Sequence record: NZ_CP019209.1
Origin: a plasmid
DNA: 64,000 nt
Reading direction: 5' to 3' (one strand)
The notes beneath the pieces were generated by a model that was given only the letters and a program-made list of their open reading frames with translations, was not told the DNA's origin and ran no database searches. How positions within the stretch are numbered: the stretch's first letter is position 1; each line of letters begins with the position of its first letter. Of this stretch, positions 7,230-57,272 are shown piece by piece. A program made the position numbers and the translations under genes.

Positions 7230-8087
7230 GTGGTAGCGAAGAAATATGTAATCGGTAATTTTAAAGGTGGCGTAGGTAAAAGTACGTGCGCGCAAATGTT
7301 AGGGTTTGAATCAGCAGTTAATGAAGGAAAAAGAACCTTGATAATTGACTTGGATATGCAAGGAAATACTTCTGATGTGATGAACTTAACGCATATGAAC
7401 TTCACTAACGAAGAAGGAGGCGGAGAAGGTGAACCGATTGTTTACGAAAATACTGTGACTGACGTGTTGATAAACAATCTTCCACCTAAAGAGGCTGTCT
7501 ATAAAGTAATCAATAACCTCTATATACTTCCAGCAGACATGTCCTTTGAAATGTATGATGATTGGATCAAAGACCAATATAATGATTCATTATCCCAATT
7601 CAAATATATGAAAGAAAAGCTAGAACCATTATTTGATGAGTTTGACGTCATCTATTTAGATGTCCCACCTTCTATTTCTGTATATAGTAAATCCGCGATG
7701 TACATTGCGGATTGGGCAATCGTCGTCTTACAGACCCAAGTAAAATCGATGAGAAATGCGATGCAATATCTTGAGTATATGGACTTTTTTGTGAAAGAAT
7801 TTGATACAAATTTATATGTTGCTGGTGTTATTCCTTTCATGTTGGAAAGCGGTGACGCAGTAGATCAGGAAATGTATAAACAAGCCCAAGAGATTTATGG
7901 GGAACATTTGATTAAAAATGTTGTACTCAAAAATGCGCGCTTAAAACGATACGACGGATCAGGTATTACGATGGAGAAGACAAAGAAAGGTCTCTTAAAA
8001 CAATGGGATCGCAAAAGCCACGAATTATTTATCAGTATTTTGAAAGAATTGGAAGAACACGAGAATTGGTATGCGGAGGTGGAGTAA
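7230..8087 (+). CDS. parA: ParA/Soj-family partition ATPase
   Basis: Deviant Walker A KGGVGKST near N-terminus; 285 aa; GTG start. Confidence 0.85.
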   Translation: MVAKKYVIGNFKGGVGKSTCAQMLGFESAVNEGKRTLIIDLDMQGNTSDVMNLTHMNFTNEEGGGEGEPIVYENTVTDVLINNLPPKEAVYKVINNLYILPADMSFEMYDDWIKDQYNDSLSQFKYMKEKLEPLFDEFDVIYLDVPPSISVYSKSAMYIADWAIVVLQTQVKSMRNAMQYLEYMDFFVKEFDTNLYVAGVIPFMLESGDAVDQEMYKQAQEIYGEHLIKNVVLKNARLKRYDGSGITMEKTKKGLLKQWDRKSHELFISILKELEEHENWYAEVE

Positions 8088-10006: not shown

Positions 10007-10392
10007 CCAATATCGATTTATTTGATTCAGAACACATTCAAACTGAAGATAATAGTGACAACTCAACTCTAAATAGTCATATATCAATCATATTTGGAGA
10101 ATCATTATATACTGGGAAATCATATAGAGATGTATTTACGCAATTAGTTTCTAATTTAGTATTATCCGCAGAGTTGGATAAATTGATTCCTTTAATGAGT
10201 CCTAATGAACCCACTACAGTACAAATACTTGGCAATAGAGAACATATATCAGCTAAAGGGGCGAAGTTGACTAAACCAATAGAACTAACTAAATACCATA
10301 TGTATGTTAATTTTTCAAAAATAGGCTTATACAATCAAATCAAAAAATTAGCTGAACTGACTGGGAAAAAAGTTATATTTGAAAGGTGGTAA
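10007..10392 (+). CDS. Hypothetical protein, 5' truncated by IS insertion (ORF 9952..10392; first 19 codons are IS-derived)
   Basis: ORF reads out of IS right end; ends 6 bp before small tyrosine recombinase gene. Confidence 0.35.
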
Positions 10393-10397
10393 TTCAT

Positions 10398-10988
10398 ATG
10401 GTTCAACAGATTGTTTTACCTATCAAAGATTCAAATATTTTAAAAATGGTTCAAGATACACTCCTTGATAGCTTTCATGCTGGACGTCGTAACTATACGA
10501 TATTCCAAGTGGGGAAAGCCACTCTCTTAAGGGTAAGTGATGTCATGAAACTTAAAAAATCAGATGTCTTTAATCCTGATGGAACGGTTAAACAAACCGC
10601 TTTTATTCATGATCAAAAAACAGGAAAAGCGAATACGTTATATTTGAAACCAGTACAACAAGATTTATTAATTTATCATGATTGGCTGGTCCAACAAAAT
10701 CTTAATTCTGAGTGGTTGTTTCCCTCAACGACTCACCCAGACCGTCACATCACCGAGAAGCAATTTTATAAGGTCATGGCACGTGTTGGTGATCTTTTAG
10801 GAATCAACTATCTAGGGACGCATACCATGCGTAAAACAGGCGCTTATCGTGTTTATACGCAGTCGAATTATAATATTGGTTTAGTCATGCATTTATTAAA
10901 CCATTCAAGCGAAGCCATGACTTTAACCTATCTTGGGTTAGATCAAGCCAGTCGAGAAACGATGTTAGACCAAATAGATTTTGGATAA
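10398..10988 (+). CDS. Small tyrosine recombinase (phage-integrase family catalytic domain, ~197 aa)
   Basis: GTHTMRKTGAYRV (HxxR) and LTYLG (catalytic Tyr region); RBS AAAGGTGG upstream; paralog of 16219..16836. Confidence 0.7.
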   Translation: MVQQIVLPIKDSNILKMVQDTLLDSFHAGRRNYTIFQVGKATLLRVSDVMKLKKSDVFNPDGTVKQTAFIHDQKTGKANTLYLKPVQQDLLIYHDWLVQQNLNSEWLFPSTTHPDRHITEKQFYKVMARVGDLLGINYLGTHTMRKTGAYRVYTQSNYNIGLVMHLLNHSSEAMTLTYLGLDQASRETMLDQIDFG

Positions 10989-14559: not shown

Positions 14560-15850
14560 TGATACCGTAACTGCCTCGTTATTCTAAATCAGTGAGGCCT
14601 TGATAATGAACTGAGGTATGATAGTCTTCAGACGATTCTGGCCCCAGGCCAGCTTTCCAGACATGAAGCCATGTCCCGAGTGAGGATCGTTATCAAGGAA
14701 TAATGGGTCAAGCCACCAACCGTTCTTGCTTGAATGCCTGGACGAATGTATCATGTGGTGTCGCATAACCCAAAATTTTCCGCGGGTAATCGTTCATCCA
14801 ACGCTGGATCCGCAAAATCTGGTTCTCGCTCACCTCACTAATCGGGCTTCCCTTGGGGACGAAACGGCGAATTAATTTGTGCTGGTTTTCGCTCGTCCCA
14901 CGCTCCCAAGAAGCATAGGGGTGGCTGAAATAGACGTCAGCTACATCTTGCAGAGCATCGTGTAGCCCAGAAAACTCCGAGCCATTGTCGGATGTAACGG
15001 TCTTAAATAATTGATCGAAGTTAGCGCCAGCCCGTTCTCTTAGCTGTTGAACCGCTTGGTCCACCGATTCGGTGTCCTTCCCGTTCAACTTTAGGATGAC
15101 TTCAAAGCGTGTCTGCCGTTCAGCCAGCGTCAGCAGCACGGCATCCGACTTGGTCTTGTTTCCCACTACCGTGTCGATTTCCCAATGACCGAACGTTTCC
15201 CGTGTTTCAACTTCTTTAGGGCGTTCTTCAATTGACGTCCCGAGAACACGCTTGTTGGGACGGTGTCCTGGGCGGACCGCTTTGATTTTACGGGACAGTT
15301 TTTCAAGCAAGTCCATGTTCTTTGTTCGCATGATTCCGCGGTCAATCCATTGATAAAGAGCGGTTGTGCCAGGAATGATGGCACAATCGAACAGCTCGTG
15401 TTTTCTGGCAAATCCGACCACGACGTCCGGCGACCATTTTTCATTTAACATTTTGTCATCTGCCCAATCAATGAAGGCATTTGTGTTCGCCCATTTGGGG
15501 CGTCTGCCACAGTTCAGTCGTTGCTTTTCATAGAAGGCCTGTCCTGCATCAGCGTCATAAACAGAATAGTAGGTGTCATACACTTTTCCATTTTGCGTTT
15601 GGCGTTTTAACTGGGTGATGGTTCCGCGATCAATCTCATTGTTTATGGTTTGCGGAACACGTCCCAGCACTTTGGCAACCTGACGGTTGGAATAGCCTTC
15701 CTTTTTCAGGATAGCGATTTGGCAACGTTCTGAGTAGGAAAGATGTTTTCCCTTGCGTGAAACTGTGTTATCATGGGTTTGCGTCATGTGAATTCATCCT
15801 TGTCTATTGAGAGTTGTGGTAACTTCAATATAACATGGAATTCACGTGGC
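14560..15850 (-). mobile_element. IS30-family insertion sequence, higher GC than surroundings; boundaries approximate
   Basis: 359-aa transposase with N-terminal HTH and DDE blocks GHWEIDTV / SDNGSEF / ENQHKLIRRF. Confidence 0.7.
14708..15787 (-). CDS. IS30-family transposase
   Basis: See above. Confidence 0.85.
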   Translation of the reverse strand: MTQTHDNTVSRKGKHLSYSERCQIAILKKEGYSNRQVAKVLGRVPQTINNEIDRGTITQLKRQTQNGKVYDTYYSVYDADAGQAFYEKQRLNCGRRPKWANTNAFIDWADDKMLNEKWSPDVVVGFARKHELFDCAIIPGTTALYQWIDRGIMRTKNMDLLEKLSRKIKAVRPGHRPNKRVLGTSIEERPKEVETRETFGHWEIDTVVGNKTKSDAVLLTLAERQTRFEVILKLNGKDTESVDQAVQQLRERAGANFDQLFKTVTSDNGSEFSGLHDALQDVADVYFSHPYASWERGTSENQHKLIRRFVPKGSPISEVSENQILRIQRWMNDYPRKILGYATPHDTFVQAFKQERLVA

Positions 15851-16218: not shown

Positions 16219-16836
16219 ATGATTATGGTAAAATATATATATAATCATGAACTCAGAATATTTTTAAGAAGGGAAACAATAGTGAGCTATAATGTACAAC
16301 CGTTAAGGACAAATGAAGAGATACAAGATTTTCAGTTTTGGCTAAGAAGAACAAGTAATCCAGAAAGAGATAGTTTTTTATTTTTGTTTGGAATCAATAA
16401 TGGGTTACGTATGTCAGATATTATAGGATTAAAAGTTGGAGACATACGAGGTAAAAGTAAGCCCATTATTGTTGAACATAAAACAGGTAAGCGAAAACCG
16501 ATTTTTATAGATAATTTGAGAGAAGAGATTTTATTATATACTGAAGGTAAAGAAGAAAATGATTGGTTATTTCCAAGTCGGCAACAAGGTCGACATATAA
16601 CAAGGGATCGTGTCTATCAGATATATGCAGATATAGCAGAAAAATTAGGAAGAGATGATATAGGAACACATACATTAAGAAAAACTTTTGGGTACCACTA
16701 CTACAAGAAAACTAGAGACATTGCTACCTTAATGTTTATTTTTAATCATAGCTCGCAAGCAATTACAAAAAGGTACATTGGTATAACTGAAGATGAAATA
16801 GGGGCATCGTTACGTGGTTTTAAATTGGGAGGCTAA
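16219..16836 (+). CDS. Small tyrosine recombinase (paralog of 10398..10988)
   Basis: GTHTLRKTFGYHYY (HxxR), ITKRYIGI (Tyr region); 205 aa. Confidence 0.7.
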   Translation: MIMVKYIYNHELRIFLRRETIVSYNVQPLRTNEEIQDFQFWLRRTSNPERDSFLFLFGINNGLRMSDIIGLKVGDIRGKSKPIIVEHKTGKRKPIFIDNLREEILLYTEGKEENDWLFPSRQQGRHITRDRVYQIYADIAEKLGRDDIGTHTLRKTFGYHYYKKTRDIATLMFIFNHSSQAITKRYIGITEDEIGASLRGFKLGG

Positions 16837-32927: not shown

Positions 32928-34193
32928 ATGAAACATTTCAAAAAAATAGCTTTAACAGGGATAGCTGTTTTAACTGGGACATTACTCGCAGCATGTGGTG
33001 GGGGAGATAGTAATTCTAAAGACGGGCAAGTAACTTTAAGCTATGCGAGTTGAGATACTGACCAAGCTCCAGGACTAAGAAAAATATTAGATGAATTTGA
33101 AAAACAAAATCCTGATATCAAAGTAGAAATGGAGACAACGCCTTGGGATCAATATTGGGTTAAATTAGAAGCTGCAACAACGGGAGGTAATATGCCAGAT
33201 GTAGTAACCATGCACTCTAGCGAATCCTATAAATATATGTCACAGAATGCTTTGATGGGACTTGATGATGTTATCAAAGAAAATGATATTGACATGGGAA
33301 ACTTTACTGAAGGAATTGCTGATTTCTATACGCTTGAAGACGAACTATACGCAATCCCTAAAGATGCTTCTGTAGTGGGGCTATGGTACAACAAAGAATT
33401 ATTTGATAATGCAGGTGTCGATTATCCAGATGAAACATGGACATGGGAAACACTCAGACAAGCTGCAATTGATTTAACAGATGAATCAAAAGGCATCTAT
33501 GGTTTTGCATCACATATTGGAACAGAGACTGGCTACTGGCCATTTATTTATCAAAATGGGGGAGAAGTATTTGCCGATGACAATACAAAATCAGGTTTGA
33601 ATACCCCAGAAGCACAAGAAGCTTTAGCTTTTTATCGAGATATTGCACTTGTTGATCATGCTTCACCAACAATTACAGAATTACAAGATCCTGATAAGTT
33701 AAGTCGTTTTCAATCAGGTAGATTAGCAATGATGATTGAAGGAAACTGGTTTGCACCGGGATTTTTGAAAAATGACTATCTAGTTGAAAATGTTGCTTCT
33801 GCCGTGTTACCTAAGGGAAAAGTTAATGCAACAATTACAAATGGACTTGGTTGGGCTGCCAGTGCGAATACAAAATACCCAGAAGAAGTGAAAAAACTAA
33901 TGGCATTTTTAGCTAGTGAGGACGCCAATAAAATCCAAGCGGAAACGGGGGCATCAATCCCAGCACTAAAAGGCTTTGAAGACGAGTGGGCTGCTTCTTC
34001 AGATACAATTGATTTGAGTGCTTTTGGAAAAATGTTGGAGTATGGAGTCCCTCGTCCATACAATAAAGATGGATTACGAGCTGAACAAGCAGAAGTTCAA
34101 ATTATTAACCGTATTCTGTCTGGTGAAGTAACTGTTGAAGATGGAACCGCTCAAATTGAAAAAGAAGTCAATGCGATATTGAGCGGAAATTAA
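32928..34193 (+). pseudogene. Sugar ABC transporter solute-binding lipoprotein with in-frame TGA (33051-33053) where Trp is expected (YAS*DTDQAPG)
   Basis: Signal peptide + lipobox LLAACGG; remainder 33129..34193 is a family-1 solute-binding protein. Confidence 0.75.
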
Positions 34194-34266: not shown

Positions 34267-35172
34267 GGGGATATTATGAAAAATCGAATTTTTGGAAAAT
34301 ATCGTAAAGATCAAGTGATATGGGGCTATATTTTTATTTTTCCAACGGCATTAGGATTAATTTTATTAAATATATGGCCAGCAATTCAAACAGCAATTTT
34401 AAGTTTTCAAAAAACGGTAGGGTTCGGTGATACTGAATGGGTCGGATTAAGAAATTACCAAAAAATGTTTGCAGACGGTGAAGTTTTTCAGTCTTTATTA
34501 AACACATTAATTTATGCAGTGGTTTCGATACCTAGTATTGTTGTATTATCCTTGTTGGTGGCAGTTTTAATGAATAGAAAAGTTAAAGGATTGTCGATTT
34601 ATCGGACAATTTATTTTCTACCAGTCGTTGCTGCACCATCCGCAGTCGCAATGATTTGGCGCTGGATGTTCAATAATGATTATGGACTGATTAATAACAT
34701 GTTGGCTAAAATAGGTCTCGATGGACCAGCATGGTTAACGGATCCATCGATTGCGATTTATTCTATTATCATTGTAGGAGTTTGGAGTGCTATTGGTTAT
34801 AACATGGTGTTATTACTAGCCGGCTTATAAGAAATTCCTAAAGATTATTATGAAGCATCGGAAATTGATGGTGCTAGTCCAATCCAGCAGTTTTTCAACA
34901 TTACGTTACCATTAGTTACACCAACATTATTTTTTGTAGTTGTAACAACAGTTATCAATGCTTTCCAAGTATTTGATGTTATTTTTATGATGATTACTCC
35001 TAATAGTACCGCCATGTTTAAATCACAATCATTAGCCTATTTATTCTATAAACATTCATTTATTTTAAATGACAAGGGATATGGTTCGGCAATCGTTATG
35101 TTCCTTTTAGTGATTATATTAATTATTACTGCAATTCAAATGAAGTTGCAGAAAAAGTGGGTAAACTATTAA
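34267..35172 (+). pseudogene. Sugar ABC transporter permease (MalF-like) with TAA nonsense at 34828-34830 (CAA expected: LAGL*EIPKDYYEASEIDGAS)
   Basis: Same frame remains open from 34831 to 35172 and encodes the EAA-loop and C-terminal TMs. Confidence 0.75.
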
Positions 35173-37951: not shown

Positions 37952-39087
37952 AAAAAGAAATGACTCAAACGATTCAGGAGATTGCTAAAGATTTTGAAGC
38001 AAAAAACCCTGATATTCATGTAAAAGTTGTGGATGTACCGAATGCTGGTGAAGTAATTAAAACACGTATGCTTGCAGGCGATGTACCAGATGTCATTAAT
38101 CTTTATCCTCAAAGTATAGAATTGAAAGAATGGGCGAAAGCTGGTTATTTAGAGGACTTAACCGAAGAACCGTATTTAGAGAATATCAAAAATGGATATG
38201 CACAACGTTTTGCTATTGAGGATCGTGTATATAGCATACCATTAACCGCTAATGTCTATGGTTTTTACTATAACAAAACTGCTTTTGAGGAAATGGGGAT
38301 TCAAGCACCAGAAACTTGGGCAGAATTTGAAAAAATAGTAGCTGAGATTAAAGATCAAAACAAAGTACCGTTTGCGATTGCAGGAGCAGAAGGCTGGACT
38401 TTAAATGGTTATCACCAACTAGCTATAGCGACTGCTGCTGGTGGTGAAGAGGAAGCGAACAATGTTTGGCGTTTCTCAGAAGTTAATGGAATTAATGCTG
38501 AAAGCAAAGAAATGCAAAAAGATTTTAATCGATTAGATTTGTTAAGAGAACCAAAAGCTTTGCAAAACAACTGGCAAGGTGCCGGTTATAACGATACAGT
38601 AGTTACTTTTACAAAAGGTGATGCGTTGATTATGCCGAATGGTTCATGGGCAATGCCGATGATTCATTCACAAAATCCAGATTTTGAAGTAGGAACTTTT
38701 CCTTTTCCAGCAGATGAAGCAGGTCAAAGTCTAACGATTGGCGCAGGAGACCTAGCCTTATCAGTTTCTGCAACTTCTCAACATAAAGAAGAAGCCAAAC
38801 GTTTTGTAGAATATATGACAACACCTGAAGCGATGCAGAAATATTATGATGTAGATGGTGCACCGTGTGCTGTTGAGGGCGTTATCGAGAATACTCAGGA
38901 TTCACCATTAAGTGGTTTAACTGAACTTGCTTTTACTGATCGTCATTTAGTTTGGTTAGCCAAAGATTGGAATAGTGAAAATGATTTTTATACCTTAACA
39001 ACAAATTATTTACACAATGGCAATCAAAAAGCCATGATTAACGCATTAAATGCTTTCTTTAATCCAATGAAAGCTGACGGAAGGTAG
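37828..39087 (+). CDS. Sugar ABC transporter solute-binding lipoprotein (raffinose/melibiose-type); true start at the third repeat copy
   Basis: MKWSKKIILACIALGATISLTACG lipoprotein signal; family-1 solute-binding protein. Confidence 0.85.
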   Translation: MKWSKKIILACIALGATISLTACGKNQEDASGKVEIEFFNQKKEMTQTIQEIAKDFEAKNPDIHVKVVDVPNAGEVIKTRMLAGDVPDVINLYPQSIELKEWAKAGYLEDLTEEPYLENIKNGYAQRFAIEDRVYSIPLTANVYGFYYNKTAFEEMGIQAPETWAEFEKIVAEIKDQNKVPFAIAGAEGWTLNGYHQLAIATAAGGEEEANNVWRFSEVNGINAESKEMQKDFNRLDLLREPKALQNNWQGAGYNDTVVTFTKGDALIMPNGSWAMPMIHSQNPDFEVGTFPFPADEAGQSLTIGAGDLALSVSATSQHKEEAKRFVEYMTTPEAMQKYYDVDGAPCAVEGVIENTQDSPLSGLTELAFTDRHLVWLAKDWNSENDFYTLTTNYLHNGNQKAMINALNAFFNPMKADGR

Positions 39088-39096
39088 GAAAATAAA

Positions 39097-39969
39097 ATGA
39101 AAATAAAAGAAATTTTAAATCGTTACTGGGCAATCATTTTTGTAGCAATTCCAATTATTTTGCAGATGATTTTTTTCTACTTTCCAATGGTTCAAGGTGC
39201 TTTTTACAGTTTAACTAATTGGACTGGTCTGACTTATAATTTTGATTTTGTGGGTTTGAACAATTATAAGATTCTTTTTTCTGATCCGAAGTTTATCAAA
39301 TCGATTGGCTTCACTTTAATTGTGACGCTTTGCATGATTGCTGGACAAATTGGTTTTGGTATTTTGATTGCGCGGGCGTTGAACGCAAATATTAAAGGGA
39401 AAACATTCTTTAGAGCATGGTTCTTTTTTCCAGCGGTCTTATCGGGCGTGGTTGTTTCTTTAGTATTTAAACAAATTTTTAACTATGGTTTACCAAAAAT
39501 TGGTAGTATGTTAGGCATTGAATTTTTACAAACCAGTCTTTTAGGAACAACATGGGGAGCGATTTTTGCAGTAATTTTTGTTTTACTTTGGCAAGGAATT
39601 GCCATGCCAGTCATCATTTTCTTAGCGGGTTTTCAAAGTATTCCACAAGAAATTATTGAAGCTGCTAGAATGGATGGGGCGAATGATAAGCAAATTTTTT
39701 GGAATATTGAAATCACCTACTTATTACCAAGTATTTCAATGGTATTTATTATGGCATTAAAAGGTGGCTTAACAGCATTTGATCAAATTTTTGCTTTAAC
39801 TGGTGGTGGACCAAGCGATGCCACAACATCTTTGGGGTTACTTGTTTATAATTATGCTTTTAAAAACAATCAGTTTGGTTATGCGAATGCTATTGCTTTA
39901 GTCTTATTTATCTTAATTGGGATTGTTTCACTGGCACAATTAAAATTATCGAAAAAATTTGAAATCTAG
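39097..39969 (+). CDS. Sugar ABC transporter permease (MalF-like)
   Basis: EAA loop region IEAARMDGANDKQIFWNI. Confidence 0.85.
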   Translation: MKIKEILNRYWAIIFVAIPIILQMIFFYFPMVQGAFYSLTNWTGLTYNFDFVGLNNYKILFSDPKFIKSIGFTLIVTLCMIAGQIGFGILIARALNANIKGKTFFRAWFFFPAVLSGVVVSLVFKQIFNYGLPKIGSMLGIEFLQTSLLGTTWGAIFAVIFVLLWQGIAMPVIIFLAGFQSIPQEIIEAARMDGANDKQIFWNIEITYLLPSISMVFIMALKGGLTAFDQIFALTGGGPSDATTSLGLLVYNYAFKNNQFGYANAIALVLFILIGIVSLAQLKLSKKFEI

Positions 39970-45774: not shown

Positions 45775-47040
45775 TATTCCATAGAACAAAAAATCCTTTA
45801 TACTAGCACTTGGATGACTTATCCAAGACCAATAAAAAGGACTCATACATGGATAAGTATAAAACAAATACAGCATTTAATAAATGGTTTTCTGCCATAA
45901 AATTAGGAAAACTTTCTGTCAACTCCCAAAAATGTATTTTTGATTACAATTCGTATCGTAAAAAACTGTCTTTTGAAGCTGTGCTCAAGCTCTTTCTCTA
46001 CGCAGTTAATGAAGAAAAAGAAAGTTTGCGTGATTTGAGTACAGCTCTTATCGACCGATCGCTCCAACTAGAAACCGATGTGTCATCGATTAGTCATACC
46101 CAATTGTCTCGAGCATTTAATGCACTTGAACCTAAAGTGTTAGAAGAAATTTTTCAACAACTGTTAGAAAAAGTTCAACATCAAATCAAACCAACCAAGC
46201 GAAATCATCTGTATCTGATTGATTCCAGTACGTTTTCGCTTAGTTTAAAACGTCATAAGTGGGCGACTTTCCGTCAAACAAAATCAGGTGTCAAGTTACA
46301 CTTAAACTATTGTTATATGGACGATACTACGATGTATCCAACTGATTTTACCTTAACAAATGCCCATGAACATGATCTCAATCAACTACCAGTATTGGTG
46401 AATCAACCAGAGGCAACTTACGTGTTTGATCGTGGGTATTAGGACTTTGAAAAGATGGATCAGATGCATTGGGATGGCTATTTCTTCGTCACTCGGATTA
46501 AAAAAAACACCAAAGTTCACGTGATAGATACTCTGGAAACATCGCCAGAAACAGAAATTCTACGAGACGAGCTGGTTCGTTTAGGATCTAAAACCTATCT
46601 AACCGCCAATTTCCGACTAGTCACTGTTCAAGATAAGAACGGACGTGTGTTTCAATTTATCACCAATCGAATGGACGTCTCTTCAAAAGAAATCTCTGAT
46701 ATGTATCACGCTCGTTGGCAAATCGAATTGTTTTTCAAGCACATCAAACAACACATGACCATTAAAACCTTCTTTTCTCAAAGTGAAAAAGGCGTGCAGA
46801 ATCAATTGATTTTAACGATGATTTCCGCTCTCCTCACGTTTCTCATCAAATTGGAGACGAAAACGGAAAAATCAGTGTTCCAAATCAAACGATTCTTTCG
46901 TTATTTACTGTTTCAGCCCTTTGAATGTTGTCTAGAAAAATTAATTCCCACATGAGAAAAAAGAAATTTGGCTCGTTACTTTTGGTTTTCAGTTGAATAA
47001 CAGATAAAAAATTTTCTGGAAAAAGTCATCCTCTGCGTCA
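45775..47040 (+). mobile_element. IS4-family insertion sequence; boundaries approximate
   Basis: DDE transposase blocks YLIDSSTF / VFDRGY / HARWQIELFFKHIKQ. Confidence 0.6.
45852..46955 (+). pseudogene. IS4-family transposase interrupted by in-frame TAG at 46441-46443 (DRGY*DFEKMD)
   Basis: Two ORFs 45810..46442 and 46455..46955 in the same frame. Confidence 0.75.
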
Positions 47041-47276: not shown

Positions 47277-47486
47277 ATGGTGGTTATAACAAAAAATGAA
47301 TTAATGAAATTAGGTTATGGGAAGTATCAGTCTGAGAGAATCATACGACAGGCAAAAGCAATTATGGTTTCAAAAAGCTATACCTATTACGAAAATAGAA
47401 GATTAGGACTAGTACCTGTTGAATCTGTAGAAGAAGTTTTAGGTATGAAGATAGAGGTAGAGGAGGATTTTCAGAATCATGGTTAA
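47277..47486 (+). CDS. DUF3173-family small protein (commonly paired with tyrosine integrases of integrative elements)
   Basis: 69 aa MVVITKNELMKLGYGKYQSERIIRQAKAIM...; immediately upstream of integrase remnant. Confidence 0.5.
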   Translation: MVVITKNELMKLGYGKYQSERIIRQAKAIMVSKSYTYYENRRLGLVPVESVEEVLGMKIEVEEDFQNHG

Positions 47487-48624
47487 TTTTAAAAAAGATA
47501 AAAATGGGAAATATCATTTTACTGCTAGTTTGGGATTCGACAAACGAACAGGGAAAAGAGTACAAAAAAACGTAGAGGGGTTAAAACAGTTAAAGAAGAA
47601 AAAAAGCGTATACCGAACTTGTTTCTAATTATGGAAAAGAAGCAGAAACTTCTCAAAGTACTATGTTGTTTGAGGAGTTTTTTTATAAATTATTCCTACC
47701 TTATTATCAAGGGAAAGTAGAAGAAAGAACATATAAAAATCGGTTATCTACAATCAAAAAAACTTTTCTTATTTCTTTAAAATGGAGTTAAGAGAAATAC
47801 GTCCAATTGACATTCAAAAGTGGCAAAATAATTTATTGAGCAAATATAAAAATTCTTATGTAAGAAACATGTATGGGATTTTTCAGATGTCATTAGATCG
47901 AGCAGTTGTTTTGGGACTACTTGAAAAAAATCCTGCAAAAGTTATTGGAAATGTGAAGAAAAGGAAAACTACAGTTGATTTTTGGACAAAAGAAGAATTT
48001 ACAAAAGTTATTTCAACTTTTTATATTGATGATTTGTACCAACATTTTGGTTTTATTTGTATGTGGTTACTTTTTATGACCGTTATGCGTTTGGGAGAAG
48101 CCACTGCATTAACTTGGAAAGATATTGATTTTGAAAATAAAAACTTGCGTGTGAATAAAACACTCTATTATAAGAGAGCCAAAACCTATGAGTTTGTAGA
48201 ACCCGAAACGGCTTCTAGTATTCGTACAATCGAACTAGACGACAATACAATTACCTTTTTAAAAGCTTGGAAGGAGCGTCAAGTTTCAATAGGAGGCATG
48301 TCGTTTGTACTTTCTTATAATGGAACACCTACTCAGAAATATACAATCCGTCATATTATGAGAAGACATGCAACGATCGTTGGTGTTCATATAATCCGCA
48401 TACACGGATTAAGGCATAGTCATGCTTCTTTGCTTATATCACAATAAAAAGATGCACTTCGAATTAAAGAAAGGTTAAAACATGCTGATGTACAAACGAC
48501 TTTAGGAACTTATGGTCATTTGTATCTAAATTCATTGAGAGAGATAACAAATGATCCCACAGATTATATCCAAACTAATTTTTCTAAAATCAAACCGACA
48601 CCTATTTACGATAATAAAAAATAA
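47479..48624 (+). pseudogene. Tyrosine integrase (phage-integrase family) with N-terminal frameshifts in A-runs and internal TAA (48445-48447)
   Basis: Core ORF 47782..48447 has catalytic R...HGLRHSHAS; downstream in-frame KDALRIKERLKHADVQTTLGTYGHLY holds the catalytic Tyr. Confidence 0.7.
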
Positions 48625-48730
48625 ATGATAAACAAAAGTAGGATCACACCAAAAGAAACACACTAGAAAAACTATAATACAGGCTTTTCTAGCGTGTTGT
48701 TTCTTATTTCCGCCTATTTATACATTATAC

Positions 48731-49825
48731 TCATAAAGCATTTAATGCATCGATCGTAGCCGCATTGTCTATATGGGTATATAAAGTTGTTGTATTGGTA
48801 CTTGAATGTCCCAATTGTTGGGCAGTTAATACCAATGAATTTGTCTGTTGGTAGAGTCTAGTAGCTAATGTATGACGCAGTTTGTGAGGGCTGACTTGAA
48901 TTCTAAAGCCTTTTGAATATTTTGCTACCATCCGTTCGATTGCAATACCGGATATACGCTTGGCTTCTCCTTGGTAAATTGCTAGAAATAAAGCTTTTTC
49001 GTTTTCTGTTACTTTATATCGTTCTTTCCGAATAGCTAGATAATTAGCTAAATATTCCATTGCGAATGCTGCTATATTGACAGCATCTCTTTTATTTCCT
49101 TTTCTAGTTACTACCACATTATTCTTATCTAAAGATAGGTCATCTAAATTAATATTTATAACCTCGGAGAGTCTCAATCCAGATCCTAAAATCAGTGCAT
49201 TGATCGCCAGGTCTCTTTCTACATCTCGTTGATAATAGATCAAAGCTCGTTTACTCAAAGTATTTTTATATTCATTGGCAATATAATCTAGATAATTTTG
49301 TGTATCCTTATCTAGAAATAATTTTTTCTCAATGGCATTGGCACGTGCAGCTAACGTAGTTTTATCTGTGATGGTTGCTACTTGATCCATAGGATTATTG
49401 TCTAAGTATGGTTTTCCTAGAGGATTATTGGAACTTTTCGAAAGATATTTAAATAGAACCTTTAATGCCGTGATATTTCTATTGATAGTAGAAGTAGATA
49501 GACCTAAGTTATTATTATCTTTGAGCTTAGTTTTTGTTGTCTCTTTTTTTACATTTTCTTTTGTGCGACGTTTCAAATGAGATTTGTACAAGTTTAGGTC
49601 ATAGGCAGTTAACTGTCTTATCGAGGTGATAGAAGTATCAGGAACGATAGACTCACTCAGAAGCCATTCATAAAAGAGCTTATAATTTTTTAGATATTCT
49701 AAAGTGGTTCGAGGTGATTGATCTTTATCCTCACGATCTTGAACAAAATCTTTTATATAATCGGGCATATGAAGTATGATTGTATCTATTTTTTGATATA
49801 TTTCTGTATTTTTCATGTCATTCAT
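48731..49825 (-). CDS. xerS: XerS-like tyrosine recombinase (364 aa)
   Basis: Length and block pattern LAARANAIEKKLFL...LSKRAL...RDLAINALILGSGLRLSE...VTRKGNKRDAVNIAAFA...EKMVAKYS...HKLRHTLATRLY...QLGHSST..T.LYTHI match the single-recombinase XerS family as recalled. Confidence 0.6.
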   Translation of the reverse strand: MNDMKNTEIYQKIDTIILHMPDYIKDFVQDREDKDQSPRTTLEYLKNYKLFYEWLLSESIVPDTSITSIRQLTAYDLNLYKSHLKRRTKENVKKETTKTKLKDNNNLGLSTSTINRNITALKVLFKYLSKSSNNPLGKPYLDNNPMDQVATITDKTTLAARANAIEKKLFLDKDTQNYLDYIANEYKNTLSKRALIYYQRDVERDLAINALILGSGLRLSEVININLDDLSLDKNNVVVTRKGNKRDAVNIAAFAMEYLANYLAIRKERYKVTENEKALFLAIYQGEAKRISGIAIERMVAKYSKGFRIQVSPHKLRHTLATRLYQQTNSLVLTAQQLGHSSTNTTTLYTHIDNAATIDALNAL

Positions 49826-49853
49826 CCTTTCAATAAGTAGGGGAGAAGAGTAT

Positions 49854-49881
49854 CTCTATAATTGGACTATACCAATTATAG
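49854..49881. other. 28-bp palindrome with 11-bp arms and 6-bp spacer (TCTATAATTGG ACTATA CCAATTATAGA), candidate recombinase core site ~30 bp upstream of xerS-like gene
   Basis: Read directly; architecture equals Xer/dif-type sites. Confidence 0.45.
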
Positions 49882-50149
49882 AATGTTTTGTCAATTGGTA
49901 TGCTCTAAAATTTATTAATTTGTTTCAAAAAAAGCATATAAACAGGTATACGTTTAATAATTTAAAATAAATGGTATACATAAATAGGGAAGGAAATAGA
50001 AGGGAGCAATCTAAATTTTTTGAATTTTCTTAATTAATTATATAGAAAGAACAATCTTTCTATAGAGTTAGACATGAGAGGGACTATGCTTGATTTAAAA
50101 TCAACAAGCGTATATACTGTATATACAAAGAAAAAGGAGGGAGAAGACT

Positions 50150-50383
50150 ATGGCAATTAAAGAAAGAAAATTTAGGGAAGTGGGGAACTCAGTAGTATTA
50201 ACTATTTCAAAGGAGTTTCTTAAAGAAAATGGGTTAAATCCCGGAGATACGGTTTTTTTAGATGAAGAAAAACTTCGAGCGGCAATTACAAAAAAACAAG
50301 CCTTATCTGATGAAATTGATTTAGCAATATCTCAAGCATTAACTGAATATGATACTACTTTTAGAGAGCTTGTCGATAAATGA
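50150..50383 (+). CDS. Type II antitoxin, MazE/AbrB (SpoVT-AbrB) family
   Basis: KFREVGNSVVLTISKEF swapped-hairpin motif; RBS AGGAGGGAG. Confidence 0.7.
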   Translation: MAIKERKFREVGNSVVLTISKEFLKENGLNPGDTVFLDEEKLRAAITKKQALSDEIDLAISQALTEYDTTFRELVDK

Positions 50384-50787
50384 GTATTCATTACCTAGAA
50401 GCCAAAGATATTATAAAAATGAATGTAATCCAAATAAAAAAATACTCTCCTAATGAACCCCTTGGTGTAAAGGATGCGAATGCTTTAGAAATGTGTGTAG
50501 GGCAACTTCGAGCCTCAGCTTTTGGTGAAGAGGTTTATCCTTCGATTTATGAAAAAGCAGCTATCCTACTTATACAATTGATAAAGAAACATCCTTTTCA
50601 CAATGCAAATAAACGTACTGCTTTCTTAGCTACTTTTGTCTTTTTGAAAATCAATGGACAGCTTTTAGCTATTGATCAAAAAGATGCTGTAAATTTAGCG
50701 GTATATATTGCTACGTATGATAAGGATTTCGATCAACTAAAATATGAAGTGATCAACACTATAAAGACACATACGCAGCCCATTTAA
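50380..50787 (+). CDS. doc: Doc (death-on-curing) / Fic-family toxin
   Basis: Fic/Doc motif HPFHNANKRTAF; ATGA overlap with antitoxin. Confidence 0.8.
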   Translation: MSIHYLEAKDIIKMNVIQIKKYSPNEPLGVKDANALEMCVGQLRASAFGEEVYPSIYEKAAILLIQLIKKHPFHNANKRTAFLATFVFLKINGQLLAIDQKDAVNLAVYIATYDKDFDQLKYEVINTIKTHTQPI

Positions 50788-51299
50788 GGAGTTACTGTAT
50801 GTGTCTTTATAGTGTTATTAGCTGCTATAGCGAAATAATTGAAGTAAATTACAAATAGCTATAATTCAAATCCAAGTATATAGAAAACGTAAATTTTCTA
50901 TATAGTTGGATTAAGATAACGACTATTTATTTTATCATATTTTTACTGTACCCTATACTTTTACTTGGTATATTTATGAATAATCGCAAATTTACCCCTA
51001 TACTACTAGTTTGTAAGTTAGATTAATAAAAATACTAAAGTTATTTGTTCTTTTATTAAATACACCTACAACTTATAAATTGATGGTATTTAGATAACGC
51101 GAAAGAATAAAAATAACAGCTGATAGTAAAGTTTGTTGACGATTGCTACTCAATCGAAAGTGAGTTAGTGCGTATGAACTTGCTTCTGAAAACTTATGAA
51201 ATGAAAGACCTTTTACATCTTGCAGAAATCGTTACTGGGATTAAACTAAGCAATAAAAACTAATGTTCCCCTCATTCTTTGAACTTCTACTATTTGATT

Positions 51300-51644
51300 T
51301 ATTTATTCTGATAAATGACGATTTCACCTTCAGGATCTTCAAATCCCGTATAGAATTTATTTAAGATCTCTTCAGTATCAGTAATAGGATAGGCGATAGG
51401 CCACATACCCTTTGATGGTTAGAATAAACTGCTCAAAATCTGTATCGTATGTTGGCTTTAGCATATTAACAAAGGCTATCTCCAAATTATAAACCATAAG
51501 CGTTGAATCGTTCTTAACAATTTCAATTCTTCCTAACCCAAAGTCAGAAGATATAATTACCGGACTTGCCTTACCCTTCATGTGGGTTGTTGAGATTCCA
51601 TATTTAAAGGGAATTGTCGGTACTATCGGCGGTCTGAAAAACAT
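51300..51644 (-). pseudogene. Small VOC/glyoxalase-like protein, frameshifted near 51375
   Basis: 88-aa ORF followed in +1 frame by TDTEEILNKFYTGFEDPEGEIVIYQNK*. Confidence 0.35.
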
Positions 51645-51923
51645 CCCAAAAATAAAAAAATCTTTCCCCTGCTAGTCTCCTAAGTCCCTTTGCAGCGGAT
51701 ATGGCACCATAATCTCATTTTATCGAAGTGAGTCATGGTTTATCTGTTGGCCAACCAAAATTGATACAATCTAACGATGCACCCTCTACGGCATTCTAGG
51801 GGAGTGCACTTGCATTCACCCAATAAAAACCGGCAGTTAGCAAAGAACTTATGTAGTCGTATGTTCTTACTGTTAACATACAAGAGGTCTCCTTTCCACA
51901 ATTGCTTAGCAGTAAACGGGAAT

Positions 51924-52442
51924 TTACAAAGCTAATCTCTTCCATTTTCTTATCTTTGTTCTAAAAGTCCCAAATGGAGCAACTGTATTTACATGAATAA
52001 ATTTATATACTTCCCATACAGCCGTTTTGGTTGCCTCGTCTGCCCATTTTCTTTTGTGTGCAGTGAATAGATCTTCATCACTCATTGAATCAATCATCAT
52101 GTTAATATCATCAATATTACGATTGAGAATTTCCTCTAATTCTTTCAATGGTAGATGTGCATAGGTATTTGTAAACCACTTATATAACTCTCCTAACTGA
52201 TTCCATTTAAATTGATCAGAAGGCGTTTTAACAGATAATCCATTTCTTTCATCATTTTCCCATTTTAGAATTAAATTCGTCCAACCAACTTGATATGCTA
52301 AATTTTCAGCAGGTGTTCTATCCACTTCCTCAACTCTTTTATCCTTCAATTCTTCAGGAATAGTTTCAAATTCTAAAATATATTTAGTATAAGTCCTATT
52401 TATTTCTTTTTTTAATTCTTCTTTATTTTTATATGTTCTCAT
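51924..52442 (-). CDS. ClbS/DfsB-family (DUF1706) four-helix-bundle protein
   Basis: TPAENLAYQVGWTNLILKW block characteristic of DUF1706; 172 aa. Confidence 0.6.
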   Translation of the reverse strand: MRTYKNKEELKKEINRTYTKYILEFETIPEELKDKRVEEVDRTPAENLAYQVGWTNLILKWENDERNGLSVKTPSDQFKWNQLGELYKWFTNTYAHLPLKELEEILNRNIDDINMMIDSMSDEDLFTAHKRKWADEATKTAVWEVYKFIHVNTVAPFGTFRTKIRKWKRLAL

Positions 52443-52790
52443 TATATTACCTCCATAAATTCCTAATTGTCTCCTTTAATTCATCTATAATTTCATCCAC
52501 GATATTTTAATCCGTTCTACAATGCATATCTGATATGCATTGACTGTCTAACTCATATGTGAATGATTTATAAAATATCCCAACGTCTCATCTAAAGAAA
52601 TGTTGATCGTCAGCAAGGAGCTAAAAAATACGAATATATTTCTTTTGTAGTAAAATCGGACTGGTTTGCATATCATTTTCTTCGTAAATATCAAAATCAT
52701 GTTAACTACTATCAATTACTAATAAAAACTACCACTTTAAGCGTTAAGAACTGTTAAGTTTAGTTAAGTGAGGATAGTTCACAAAATCCA

Positions 52791-53294
52791 TTGTTAAACT
52801 TCACGAAAGTGGTAAAACTCAAAATGCTTTATATAGGATTACAGCATCGCTCTTTCTTCGATTGCGCGTTGGGTAAAAAATATTATGAAGTAAAAATTGA
52901 CGATGACACGTTCCTTACGGCTCATCAGATGAAACAGCTACAAAAACGAAATGATCAACTCGAAGAAAATTTAATTCTAAAAAAGCGATTGCCATATTCA
53001 CGCCTCGCTCGACGAACTATTAAAGGTCAAGATTTACCTGAAGATCATCCTTTTTAGGAAATTGAAGCTTTTTATGTTGCACAATGCATTTATAATACTA
53101 CAATGATGTTTTCACCAGATATTCTTCTAGGGTGCGGTGTAATGAAACAGATACACTTGCAAAAGAAAATTCACCGCGAATTTACTAAAATTATGAATAA
53201 TTATGTTAATCTTCCGAAATTTTTTTCCAAAATTAAGGGATCAAGCTGGTGTTATAGATTGTTTAAGGTTGGCAAAAAAATAACTTCTTTTTAA
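52791..53294 (+). pseudogene. Gene remnants: IS3-type OrfA C-terminal coiled-coil relic fused to a C-terminal ROK fructokinase fragment (with TAG in place of Trp)
   Basis: KQLQKRNDQLEENLILKK resembles IS3 OrfA zipper; KGQDLPEDHPF*EIEAFYVAQCIYNTTMMFSPDILLGCGVMKQ parallels ScrK 2788-2920. Confidence 0.5.
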
Positions 53295-53946: not shown

Positions 53947-54783
53947 ATGTGCAGAATATTAGGTCTATCACGTCAGTCCTATTATTATCAATCAAAACCA
54001 AAGAAAGACGAATCAGAACTTGAAGAAGTAGTCGCTGAAGAATTTATCCGCAGCCGAAAGGCCTACGGCTCAAGAAAAATAAAAAAAGCCTTATCAAAAC
54101 GAGGCATTCAGATCAGCCGACGAAAAATTAGTAGAATCATGAAAAATAGAGGATTAAAATCGAGCTATACTGTTGCTTATTTTAAAGTACATCATTCTAC
54201 TTGCAATGAAGCCAAAACGACAAACGTATTGAATCGTAAATTCTTAAGAGACAACCCATTAGAAGCGATCGTAACAGACTTGACTTATGTACGAGTCGGG
54301 AAAAAATGGAATTATGTCTGTTTCATTTTGGATCTGTTCAATCGAGAAATTCTCGGCTATTCTTGTGGAGAACATAAAGATGCCGTTCTAGTAAAAAAAG
54401 CATTTAGCCGTATCAAACAACCTCTGACAGAGGTTGAGATTTTTCATACTGATCGTGGAAAAGAGTTTGATAACCAAGCTATTGATGAATTATTAACAAC
54501 TTTTGACATCAATCGCTCATTGAGTCATAAAGGCTGTCCTTTTGATAATGCCGTAGCTGAATCAACTTATAAGTCGTTGAAAGTAGAATTTGTCTATCAA
54601 TACACATTTGAAACCTTACAACAATTGGATTTGGAGTTATTTGACTATGTCAATTGGTGGAACCACCTTCGGTTGCACGGTACACTTGGCTACGAGACAC
54701 CGGTTGGTTACCGTAACCAGAGATTGGCGCAGCGAATCCTTGATAATGAGCTCGGATGTGCTAACGCTAGCGAGGCAGTCTAA
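53947..54783 (+). CDS. IS3-family transposase OrfB (DDE), probably expressed as an OrfAB fusion by frameshifting
   Basis: DDE blocks IVTDLTYV / FHTDRGKEF / DNAVAESTYKSLK. Confidence 0.85.
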   Translation: MCRILGLSRQSYYYQSKPKKDESELEEVVAEEFIRSRKAYGSRKIKKALSKRGIQISRRKISRIMKNRGLKSSYTVAYFKVHHSTCNEAKTTNVLNRKFLRDNPLEAIVTDLTYVRVGKKWNYVCFILDLFNREILGYSCGEHKDAVLVKKAFSRIKQPLTEVEIFHTDRGKEFDNQAIDELLTTFDINRSLSHKGCPFDNAVAESTYKSLKVEFVYQYTFETLQQLDLELFDYVNWWNHLRLHGTLGYETPVGYRNQRLAQRILDNELGCANASEAV

Positions 54784-55769: not shown

Positions 55770-57272
55770 CTAATTATCTTTTCCTAATATTTGATTGATT
55801 TCTTGACTTAATAAGTCAGCTTTCCCTCCAAAAACAGCTTGGATGCCACCCTTCACTTCGAAGACAGCAGTTGCACCAGTGTCTTTTATTGTTTGTTTTT
55901 GAATAATCTCCCCATTTGTAACAGCAACACGCAAACGAGTTGCACAAGCTTCAACAGACTCAATATTTTCTTTTCCACCAAGAGCTTCAATAATGATAAG
56001 AGACTCTTCATGTAATGATGTATTTTTGTTTATTACTTTTTCAGAATGAACTTCTGATTCTTCTTCCATTCCAGGAATAGCTACCTTAAATTTTTTGATA
56101 AAGAATGTAAAAACAAAGAAATATATAAATGCCCATGCAATACCAAAAGGAATTAATTTTAACCAATTAGTTTTGTCATTCCCTTGAAGTACACCGAATA
56201 ATAAAAAGTCGATCAAACCACCTGAAAAGGAATTCCCTACACGAATATTTAAGATATCAGCAAAATAAAAAGATAATCCATCTAAGAATGCATGAATCAC
56301 ATAAAGCCAAGGAGCAACAAATAAAAACATATATTCAACTGGTTCAGTAATTCCAGTTAAAAATGATGTAAGGGCCCCGCTAAAATAAAGCCCACCATTC
56401 TTTTTACGATTTTTCTTAGGAATTGCACGATACATTGCATAACATGCTGCTGGTAACCCAAACATCATTGTTGCAAATCTTCCTGCAAAAAATCTAGTAC
56501 CATAAGTAAACAGACCAGTGTGGTTTGGATCAGCTAGTTGGGCAAAGAAAATATTTTGGGCTCCAGCAATTGTTGATCCAGCTACAGTTTCGGTACCACC
56601 TAAAGATGTATACCAGAACAAAGGGTAAATGGTGTGGTGTAGTCCAACAGCACCTGTTAAACGTAATAAAAAACCATATAAAAAAGTTCCTAAACTACCC
56701 ATTTGGGCAATTTGTTCACCAGCAACTACTAAACCATTTTGAATTGGTGGCCAAATTAAATAAAAGAAAGAACCAATAATGATTGCAGCTAAACTAGAAA
56801 CAATCGGAATAAATCTTGATCCTCCAAAAAAACCTAAGAATTGTGGTAATTCAATTTTTCTATAACGATTGTGTAAAAATGCAACAGTACCACCAACAAC
56901 AATTGATCCCACTACACCTGTATCTAGTGTTGCATCTTTTGCTGAAAAAAGTTCAAGAAACCCACTAATAGTTGCAGTATATACTAAATAAGCTACTCCA
57001 CCAGCTAAACCAGCTGTTCCTTTATCTCCATTTGCAAGTCCTACAGCAATACCAATTGCAAAAATTAGTGCTAGGTTTGCAAAAACTGCATTTCCAGCAT
57101 AACTCATAATACTTAAAATTGTATGCAACCACGGTTGATCTAAAAATGGATAAGCATTTATAGCACTCTCATTTGTTAACGCTCCTCCCAGTCCCAATAG
57201 TAATCCGGCTACTGGTAATATAGCAATTGGTAACATGAAAGCGCGTCCTAATTGTGAAAATTTTTTAAACAT
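55770..57272 (-). CDS. PTS glucose/N-acetylhexosamine-family EIICB component
   Basis: Multi-TM IIC followed by C-terminal IIB with CATRLRV motif. Confidence 0.8.
   Translation of the reverse strand: MFKKFSQLGRAFMLPIAILPVAGLLLGLGGALTNESAINAYPFLDQPWLHTILSIMSYAGNAVFANLALIFAIGIAVGLANGDKGTAGLAGGVAYLVYTATISGFLELFSAKDATLDTGVVGSIVVGGTVAFLHNRYRKIELPQFLGFFGGSRFIPIVSSLAAIIIGSFFYLIWPPIQNGLVVAGEQIAQMGSLGTFLYGFLLRLTGAVGLHHTIYPLFWYTSLGGTETVAGSTIAGAQNIFFAQLADPNHTGLFTYGTRFFAGRFATMMFGLPAACYAMYRAIPKKNRKKNGGLYFSGALTSFLTGITEPVEYMFLFVAPWLYVIHAFLDGLSFYFADILNIRVGNSFSGGLIDFLLFGVLQGNDKTNWLKLIPFGIAWAFIYFFVFTFFIKKFKVAIPGMEEESEVHSEKVINKNTSLHEESLIIIEALGGKENIESVEACATRLRVAVTNGEIIQKQTIKDTGATAVFEVKGGIQAVFGGKADLLSQEINQILGKDN

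Follow-up and report, generated by a model that had tools for sequence, protein, structure and literature searches.

A candidate dif-like site in the promoter of a plasmid-borne xerS gene at the GC-skew switch of Enterococcus faecium megaplasmids

A 64,000-nt stretch of the plasmid record NZ_CP019209.1 (the window, to which positions refer unless another record is named) carries a gene for a XerS-family tyrosine recombinase whose predicted promoter contains a perfect 28-bp dyad. Judged from sequence, the recombinase and the dyad on balance probably constitute a self-repressing XerS/dif-like dimer-resolution module borne by a RepA_N megaplasmid of Enterococcus faecium. The 3.6-kb region under study is found with 100% identity in over 100 complete plasmids of E. 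faecium, which are 150-380 kb in size, and is matched at 91-97% identity by approximately 250 further plasmids; the plasmids sharing this region are E. faecium RepA_N-type megaplasmids. In RefSeq plasmids with the identical region the gene is already labelled "tyrosine recombinase XerS", and the family assignment is as such part of public annotation. The literature that could be searched mentions neither the site nor its overlap with the promoter, its conservation across enterococcal XerS or its location at the skew junction.

An initial annotation of the window, made from the sequence alone, had described the surroundings as rich in insertion sequences (IS) and ParA-bearing. This agrees with the plasmid matches, with a ParA gene at 7230-8087 and with the IS remnants that are frequent in the window.

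The recombinase belongs to the XerS family

The xerS gene is located at 48731-49825 on the minus strand, where the longest open reading frame (ORF) encodes 364 amino acids (aa). The true start is probably the ATG at 49816, giving a protein of 361 aa, because a likely ribosome-binding site, GAAAGG (49826-49831, minus strand), lies 9 nt upstream of it, RefSeq uses this start, and alignments with homologues begin there; the GAAAGG motif is kept in relatives. The product scores 403 bits against the NCBIfam XerS equivalog NF003462 (cutoff 267), with a match spanning residues 4-363 of the protein and positions 1-355 of the 360 in the profile, whereas the XerC and XerD models give 133 and 120 bits and thus fall far below their cutoffs of 335 and 330. 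Pfam detects a Phage_integrase domain and a SAM-like N-terminal domain.

Compared with the chromosomal XerS proteins of Streptococcus and Lactococcus, the plasmid protein is 45-47% identical across 99% of its length, and the catalytic residues R218, K245, H314, R317, H340 and Y349 are invariant in 11 aligned members of the family. A lysine-rich insertion of approximately 15 residues in the N-terminal domain marks the enterococcal XerS clade. In a simple neighbour-joining tree, XerS of Enterococcus, Ligilactobacillus and Vagococcus forms a sister clade to that of the Streptococcaceae. The recombinase therefore groups with XerS and not with phage integrases, XerC or XerD, which confirms the initial assignment of the 364-aa ORF. 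It gives no match with the intact DUF3173-linked integrase found elsewhere on related plasmids. No XerS structure has been solved; in a comparison with the PDB, the nearest solved structures were those of XerA, XerH and XerD, among them 5jjv and 5jk0 (XerH) and 4a8e and 5hxy (XerA-type).

XerS-annotated genes occur on 915 plasmids in PLSDB, mainly in Bacillus (n = 410), Enterococcus (n = 384) and Ligilactobacillus (n = 33). Those of Bacillus are from the B. cereus group and include a gene on pXO1 (167991-169076).

A perfect dyad overlaps the predicted xerS promoter

The candidate XerS core site and operator is a 28-bp dyad at 49855-49882, which reads TCTATAATTGG-ACTATA-CCAATTATAGA and consists of two arms (49855-49865 and 49872-49882), complementary at 11 of 11 positions, around a 6-nt spacer (49866-49871). 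It lies 29 nt from the ATG at 49825 and 38 nt from the likelier ATG at 49816. Direct reading of the sequence thus upholds the 11-6-11 palindrome that had been placed about 30 bp upstream of the recombinase gene. Under a first-order Markov model, 0.25 perfect dyads with 11-nt arms and a spacer of 4-8 nt are expected in the window. Eight loci were found, most of which are terminators, and a perfect dyad is consequently nothing special here. What distinguishes this one is its conservation together with the xerS gene. The exact core AATTGG-N6-CCAATT has a single occurrence in the window.

The predicted xerS promoter (49866-49894, minus strand) comprises a -35 hexamer TTGACA (49894-49889), a TG at 49874-49873 and a -10 hexamer TATAGT (49871-49866). 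With 11 of 12 positions matched, the additional TG and a 17-nt spacer, it is the top match within 48500-50300. The spacer of the dyad coincides exactly with the -10 hexamer, so any protein bound to the dyad would block xerS transcription. TTGAC[A/G]-17-TATAGT is retained in all close variants. A possible third half-site, CAATTGGTAT at 49892-49901, was discarded, being kept only in variants of more than 90% identity and thus not general.

The dyad core is conserved with xerS

Thirteen distinct variants of the site were collected, linked to xerS genes 78-100% identical to that of the window. The core AATTGG-TATAGT-CCAATT, made up of the spacer and the six innermost bases of each arm, is invariant in all but one of them, the exception being locus L023 with two changes in the right arm. 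Dyad positions 7-12 are partially conserved, mostly in a symmetric manner, and past position 12 there is no consistent symmetry.

A shorter core, TTGG-N6-CCAA, accompanies this xerS clade down to 51% protein identity. It is present as TTGG-TATATT-CCAA or TTGG-TATATA-CCAA in E. pseudoavium, E. mediterraneensis, E. thailandicus and one metagenomic contig, and the Vagococcus dyad carries a symmetric double change (ATGG-TCTATA-CCAT). In these relatives of 51-58% identity (L024, L025, L126, L128 and L129), the dyad lies between the -35 and -10 hexamers and not on the -10. This shift in register relative to the promoter shows that conservation of the dyad goes beyond promoter function. The 177-kb plasmid pR1 of Ligilactobacillus salivarius has a sole TTGG-CCAA element with a TATA-containing spacer, located approximately 230 bp upstream of xerS. 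Its spacer is 7 nt long, and its left half matches the E. mediterraneensis site over 12 nt.

The dyad is retained in E. hirae, where the toxin-antitoxin neighbour is swapped, and in the 93.5% and 91.5% variants and E. hirae, where the 3' neighbour of xerS differs. Several plasmids carry an IS30-family insertion between xerS and phd, approximately 80 bp beyond the dyad, with promoter, dyad and xerS intact; in NZ_CP114618.1 (L130) the element occupies 1565-2625, corresponding to approximately 49963 in the window. By these comparisons the dyad follows xerS and not the neighbouring genes.

A scan with the 18-mer AATTGGTATAGTCCAATT returned 73 stretches (69 from metagenomes and 4 viral contigs), with xerS beside the match in 27. 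Matches lacking xerS were seen in L052, L062/L084, L063/L073/L116, L070, L071/L117 and L103/L109; their settings include DNA of 70% GC, a tandem double copy (L070) and a promoter-like TTGACA-17-TATAGT arrangement (L063). These copies may be operators of another protein family or may be due to chance. A locus search of genomes with the single protein yielded only loci that were either near-identical or very distant.

Additional repeats were observed near some of the distant relatives. In L024 (approximately 2975-2990) and L129, both with approximately 57% XerS identity, an extra half-site-like copy (AATTGGTATATAC / TTTGGTCTATAC) lies just 5' of the ribosome-binding site. On L. salivarius pR1 (L005, NZ_CP011404.1, approximately 56620-56660), the spacer of the proximal xerS promoter carries a CACGAAA-CTTAAA-TTTCATG dyad, the inner arms of which (CGAAA...TTTC) are reminiscent of difSL. 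Dyads 5' of remoter plasmid XerS genes (pXO1, B. mycoides, S. salivarius and L. iners) look different, and only that of L. iners is clear: on its plasmid (L034, approximately 2400-2440), the XerS-annotated gene is preceded by a perfect 17-6-17 palindrome, TTAAACATTCAATAAAA-CGGTAA-TTTTATTGAATGTTGAA. This palindrome overlaps a -35-like hexamer and thus has the same architecture as the enterococcal dyad with a different sequence.

The site lies at the GC-skew switch of the replicon

The dyad core is present once in each complete plasmid assembled from fetched pieces. Its position was compared with the cumulative G-C curve in five enterococcal plasmids. In the 149-kb E. faecium plasmid CP063563.1, the site is at 39264 and the maximum at 38287, with the minimum just before repA (position 1); in the 253-kb E. 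faecium plasmid NZ_CP025426.1, they are at 153143 and 154132, and the skew turns upward at repA (approximately 221 kb). The 132.5-kb plasmid NZ_LR135333.1, carrying the 93.5% E. faecium variant, has the site at 53966, the maximum at 53184 and the minimum just before repA (position 1). The 44-kb plasmid NZ_CP068121.1 of E. hirae has its site at 34979, its maximum at 33636 and a local minimum at par/rep (approximately 40 kb), and the 56-kb plasmid NZ_CP029068.1 of E. mundtii has its site at 16584, its maximum at 15706 and its minimum at par/rep (21004).

The distance between site and skew maximum is thus 0.8-1.4 kb in all five, with the minimum at the rep gene: 0.8-1.0 kb in the three E. faecium megaplasmids, which are differently arranged, 1.3 kb in E. 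hirae and 0.9 kb in E. mundtii. In the window, the polarity switch falls within 49500-52500 and the cumulative maximum at 51207. L. salivarius pR1 has its skew minimum at rep/par and, as its maximum, a plateau at 60-71.5 kb, with xerS at 55.5-57 kb; from repA to xerS it is 85.9 kb along one arm and 91.1 kb along the other, which places xerS opposite repA. Combining four lineages by hand with Fisher's method, and counting the three E. faecium plasmids as one case, gives p of approximately 0.002 for the coincidence of site and skew maximum. Nearness of chromosomal xerS to the skew shift point has previously been taken as a sign of function (Kono 2011, PMC3025954).

The site marks a polarity junction, skew being a proxy for the replication terminus and not a mapping of it. 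The initial annotation had offered plasmid multimer resolution or a chromosome terminus region as alternatives; the two descriptions would apply at once. Among candidate heptamers resembling FtsK-orienting polar sequences (KOPS), GAAGAAG and similar words show a skew toward the site, though no more than many purine-rich words do. In Vagococcus zengguangii, xerS is at 148-152 kb on contig VCAP01000002.1 (L126, 293746 bp), almost at the exact middle of the contig; if this contig is a complete replicon beginning at rep, xerS would again lie opposite the origin.

Proposed function and relation to known systems

The module would consist of XerS and a 28-bp core-type site in its own promoter, with 11-bp inverted arms and an asymmetric 6-bp spacer, TATAGT. 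Two XerS monomers would occupy the two arms. When homologous recombination fuses plasmid copies head to tail, the two resulting sites would pair, and XerS would cleave and swap strands at the spacer edges via a Holliday junction and so restore monomers. XerS on the dyad would also cover the -10 box and switch off its own promoter, which would keep the enzyme scarce. Where the oppositely skewed arms converge, the polar translocase FtsK may deliver and activate the sites at the septum, in the manner of XerS/difSL on the chromosome. Family membership with an intact catalytic set is shown by the sequences, as are the conservation, uniqueness, promoter overlap and skew-switch position of the dyad; binding of XerS to the dyad, recombination there, dimer resolution as its role and the involvement of FtsK are inferred.

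The closest comparison is with XerS/difSL, which resolves chromosome dimers in Streptococcus and Lactococcus (Le Bourgeois 2007; Nolivos 2010). Enterococcus chromosomes, for their part, are said to use XerCD. The difSL-xerS module, with a proposed autoregulation, was described by Le Bourgeois 2007 (PMC1914069). Both systems have a single recombinase of the same family by curated hidden Markov model (HMM), with the identity given above, and a site (here a predicted one) immediately upstream of the gene, overlapping its promoter and located at the GC-skew junction of the replicon. In the streptococcal and lactococcal loci L027 and L028, xerS is closely preceded by difSL (TTTCCGAAAAACTGTAATTTTCTTGAAA), the right arm of which overlaps a -35-like hexamer, and the difSL sequence agrees with the published 31-bp consensus (PMC5357621). 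The arms described here are symmetric (TCTATAATTGG/CCAATTATAGA) around a 6-bp spacer, whereas those of difSL are asymmetric (TTTCCGAAAA/TTTTCTTGAAA) around a longer centre; the present system also differs in residing on Enterococcus plasmids and in the lysine-rich N-terminal insertion of its protein. Similarity of the dyad to difSL was therefore rejected once the difSL sequences in L027 and L028 and the published consensus had been read. Of the initial description as a dif-style site, what stands is a credible cognate site that tracks the gene, is single copy and lies at the skew switch; in sequence it is unrelated to difSL.

Cre/loxP of P1 and ResD/rfsF of F likewise pair a plasmid-encoded single tyrosine recombinase with a site near its gene and serve dimer resolution, the function proposed here. 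Like loxP, the dyad has perfectly symmetric arms, and an asymmetric spacer would give it direction; there is one such site per plasmid, beside the recombinase gene. However, loxP has a 13-8-13 layout as opposed to 11-6-11, and only the present site lies inside a promoter. A sequence relation is not detectable, Cre being absent among the PDB matches at E <= 1e-5, and the likeness to Cre/loxP is one of functional analogy only. XerH/difH of Helicobacter and Campylobacter and archaeal XerA/dif are also single-recombinase Xer systems, but they are distant (E 1e-14 to 1e-17, mostly over the catalytic domain only) and chromosomal and use other sites. Like dif2 on chromosome II of Vibrio cholerae, the plasmid site would equip a large replicon with its own dimer-resolution site at the arm junction, dif2 being on a replicon of plasmid origin; in contrast to dif sites of secondary chromosomes and chromids, which use host XerCD, the replicon here supplies its own recombinase.

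Weighing the evidence and alternative explanations

Several observations weigh against the proposed dimer-resolution module. The dyad shares no arm sequence with difSL, which is the only XerS site ever tested, and a literature search on plasmid XerS sites found nothing relevant. Since the spacer and the left inner arm also serve as an extended -10, promoter function alone explains part of the conservation. Outer arm positions differ among XerS proteins that are 78-97% identical, and the symmetry of the outer arms within sites exceeds that of a cross-variant control modestly (5.6 vs 4.7 of 10 positions). The XerS proteins of L. salivarius and E. pseudoavium share 74% identity, but the L. salivarius dyad is displaced and its spacer is 7 nt long. 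In L. equi, the only such lineage, no dyad was seen within 160 nt. The dyad core resembles GntR/FadR-type operators (TGGT-N-ACCA), and unrelated metagenomic DNA contains the exact 18-mer too. As for position, GC skew in Firmicutes follows gene orientation, and the E. faecium plasmids have unequal arms. On the two small enterococcal plasmids, no more than 4-6 kb separates the skew switch from rep, and the switch falls inside a cluster made up of rep, par, xerS and a toxin-antitoxin pair. The plasmids also carry serine resolvases able in principle to resolve multimers. Chromosomal XerS requires FtsK and performed poorly on multicopy plasmids (PMC1914069); against this background, location at the junction of a low-copy megaplasmid carries meaning, though it proves nothing here.

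It is unlikely, in our assessment, that the dyad is only a transcriptional operator, bound by XerS or by a host GntR/FadR-type regulator, with strand exchange taking place at another site. Overlap of the dyad with the -10 or with the -35/-10 spacer in nearly all relatives would suit an operator, as would its dissimilarity to difSL and the recurrence of the same 18-mer in unrelated contexts, including high-GC DNA. FadR-family operators follow the consensus TGGT-Nx-ACCA, and TGGTATATACCA in L025 and L128 fits it. However, the dyad is accompanied by xerS alone and by no regulator gene, and in L. salivarius it lies away from the proximal promoter. The 130-bp intergenic region between xerS and relE in E. 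hirae holds no other conserved element, and a single copy at the skew switch suits a recombination site.

More improbable still is a palindrome with no specific protein partner, i.e., a promoter-associated or hairpin structure, such as a weak terminator or a template-switch palindrome, that is co-inherited with the gene. A terminator scan flags the dyad on the plus strand as weakly terminator-like (3 G-C pairs, T-rich tail), and perfect dyads are common in the window, as described above. Some site variants have longer perfect arms, of 18 nt in L051 (9170-9230) and 14 nt in L104, which suggests palindrome extension, for example by template switching; during replication this process can extend palindrome arms without selection. 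An RNA hairpin or terminator was nevertheless rejected: the fold is no better than that of shuffled sequences (z = -1.5), no plus-strand gene ends at the dyad, and the predicted transcript start falls inside the palindrome. Moreover, sequence and not pairing alone is kept in the inner 6 bp of both arms to 51% identity and in a shifted register.

That XerS acts as an integrase or invertase, inserting the plasmid or a segment of it into a chromosomal copy of the site or flipping a segment, is very improbable. In its favour, mobile elements too make use of tyrosine recombinases that have their site next to the gene (PMC1914069, discussion), a relative lies on a 2.9-Mb E. pseudoavium contig, and integrase remnants are nearby. 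Against it, each complete plasmid examined has one site and so offers no substrate for inversion or excision, flanking direct repeats of the site are lacking, and the module is stably located at the skew switch in differently arranged plasmids.

Wider significance

RepA_N megaplasmids drive the hospital adaptation of E. faecium through sugar use, resistance and colonisation, and their maintenance functions are poorly characterised. If the dimer-resolution reading holds, XerS and its site would form a defined determinant of stability, at which plasmid curing might be aimed. The module would extend the single-recombinase Xer solution beyond the chromosomes of Streptococcaceae, bear on the origin of XerS/difSL, and provide a compact recombinase/site pair of new specificity with which to engineer Gram-positive bacteria. 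Should the dependence on FtsK also be true, these plasmids would use a chromosome-style, septum-coupled dimer resolution.

A broader proposal, which we put forward tentatively, is that large low-copy plasmids of Firmicutes carry private single-recombinase XerS-family dif systems at the arm junction, driven by host FtsK, and are segregated like small chromosomes, with TTGG-N6-CCAA as a new specificity orthogonal to difSL. If true, it would cover the E. faecium RepA_N and L. salivarius megaplasmids and perhaps the 915 XerS-annotated plasmids including pXO1, and plasmid modules could then be the source pool for the chromosomal XerS/difSL of Streptococcaceae.

Neighbouring elements

On the 3' side of xerS, a remnant of an integrative element (47277-48624, plus strand) converges on the gene. 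It consists of an intact DUF3173 ORF at 47277-47486 (plus strand; Pfam PF11372, E 1.4e-26) and an integrase pseudogene at 47479-48624 (plus strand) with a broken reading frame: its N-terminal part has several stops or a frameshift, and a further stop separates the HxxR box from the catalytic tyrosine. The pseudogene is 37% identical to the intact DUF3173-linked integrase mentioned above. This agrees with the initial annotation of a decayed DUF3173-integrase element.

It had further been suggested that an old integrative element used the palindrome, and this finds no support. The remnant is approximately 1.2 kb away from the palindrome, and no second copy of the dyad flanks it. In plasmids with the 93.5% variant, an IS30 transposase and phosphotransferase system (PTS) genes replace the remnant, and in plasmids with the 91.5% variant and in E. 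hirae, an unrelated gene for a 184-aa recombinase takes its place directly beside xerS. An integrative element at the palindrome was rejected on the basis of the 3' position of the remnant, the single-copy site, and the absence of or difference in the remnant among variants.

Divergent from xerS is a phd/doc toxin-antitoxin pair (50150-50787, plus strand), with the antitoxin at 50150-50383 and the toxin at 50380-50787, both above the model cutoffs (TIGR02609 doc_partner and TIGR01550 DOC_P1). It is a neighbouring stability module, and is also found upstream of xerS in L020, L023 and L029, with RelE and a helix-turn-helix (HTH) gene in its place in E. hirae. Upstream of phd/doc there is a second palindrome, TATAGAAAGA-N4-TCTTTCTATA at 50035-50070. 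Every locus with phd/doc has it conserved, and loci with RelE/HTH instead lack it; it is probably the phd/doc operator, separate from the xerS site.

Two small tyrosine recombinase genes elsewhere in the window, at 10386-10988 and 16219-16836, encode proteins of approximately 200 aa with the catalytic domain only, the latter being the orthologue of the 184-aa recombinase. An IS4-type (DDE_Tnp_1) transposase at 45810-46955 is split over two ORFs and is likely a pseudogene.

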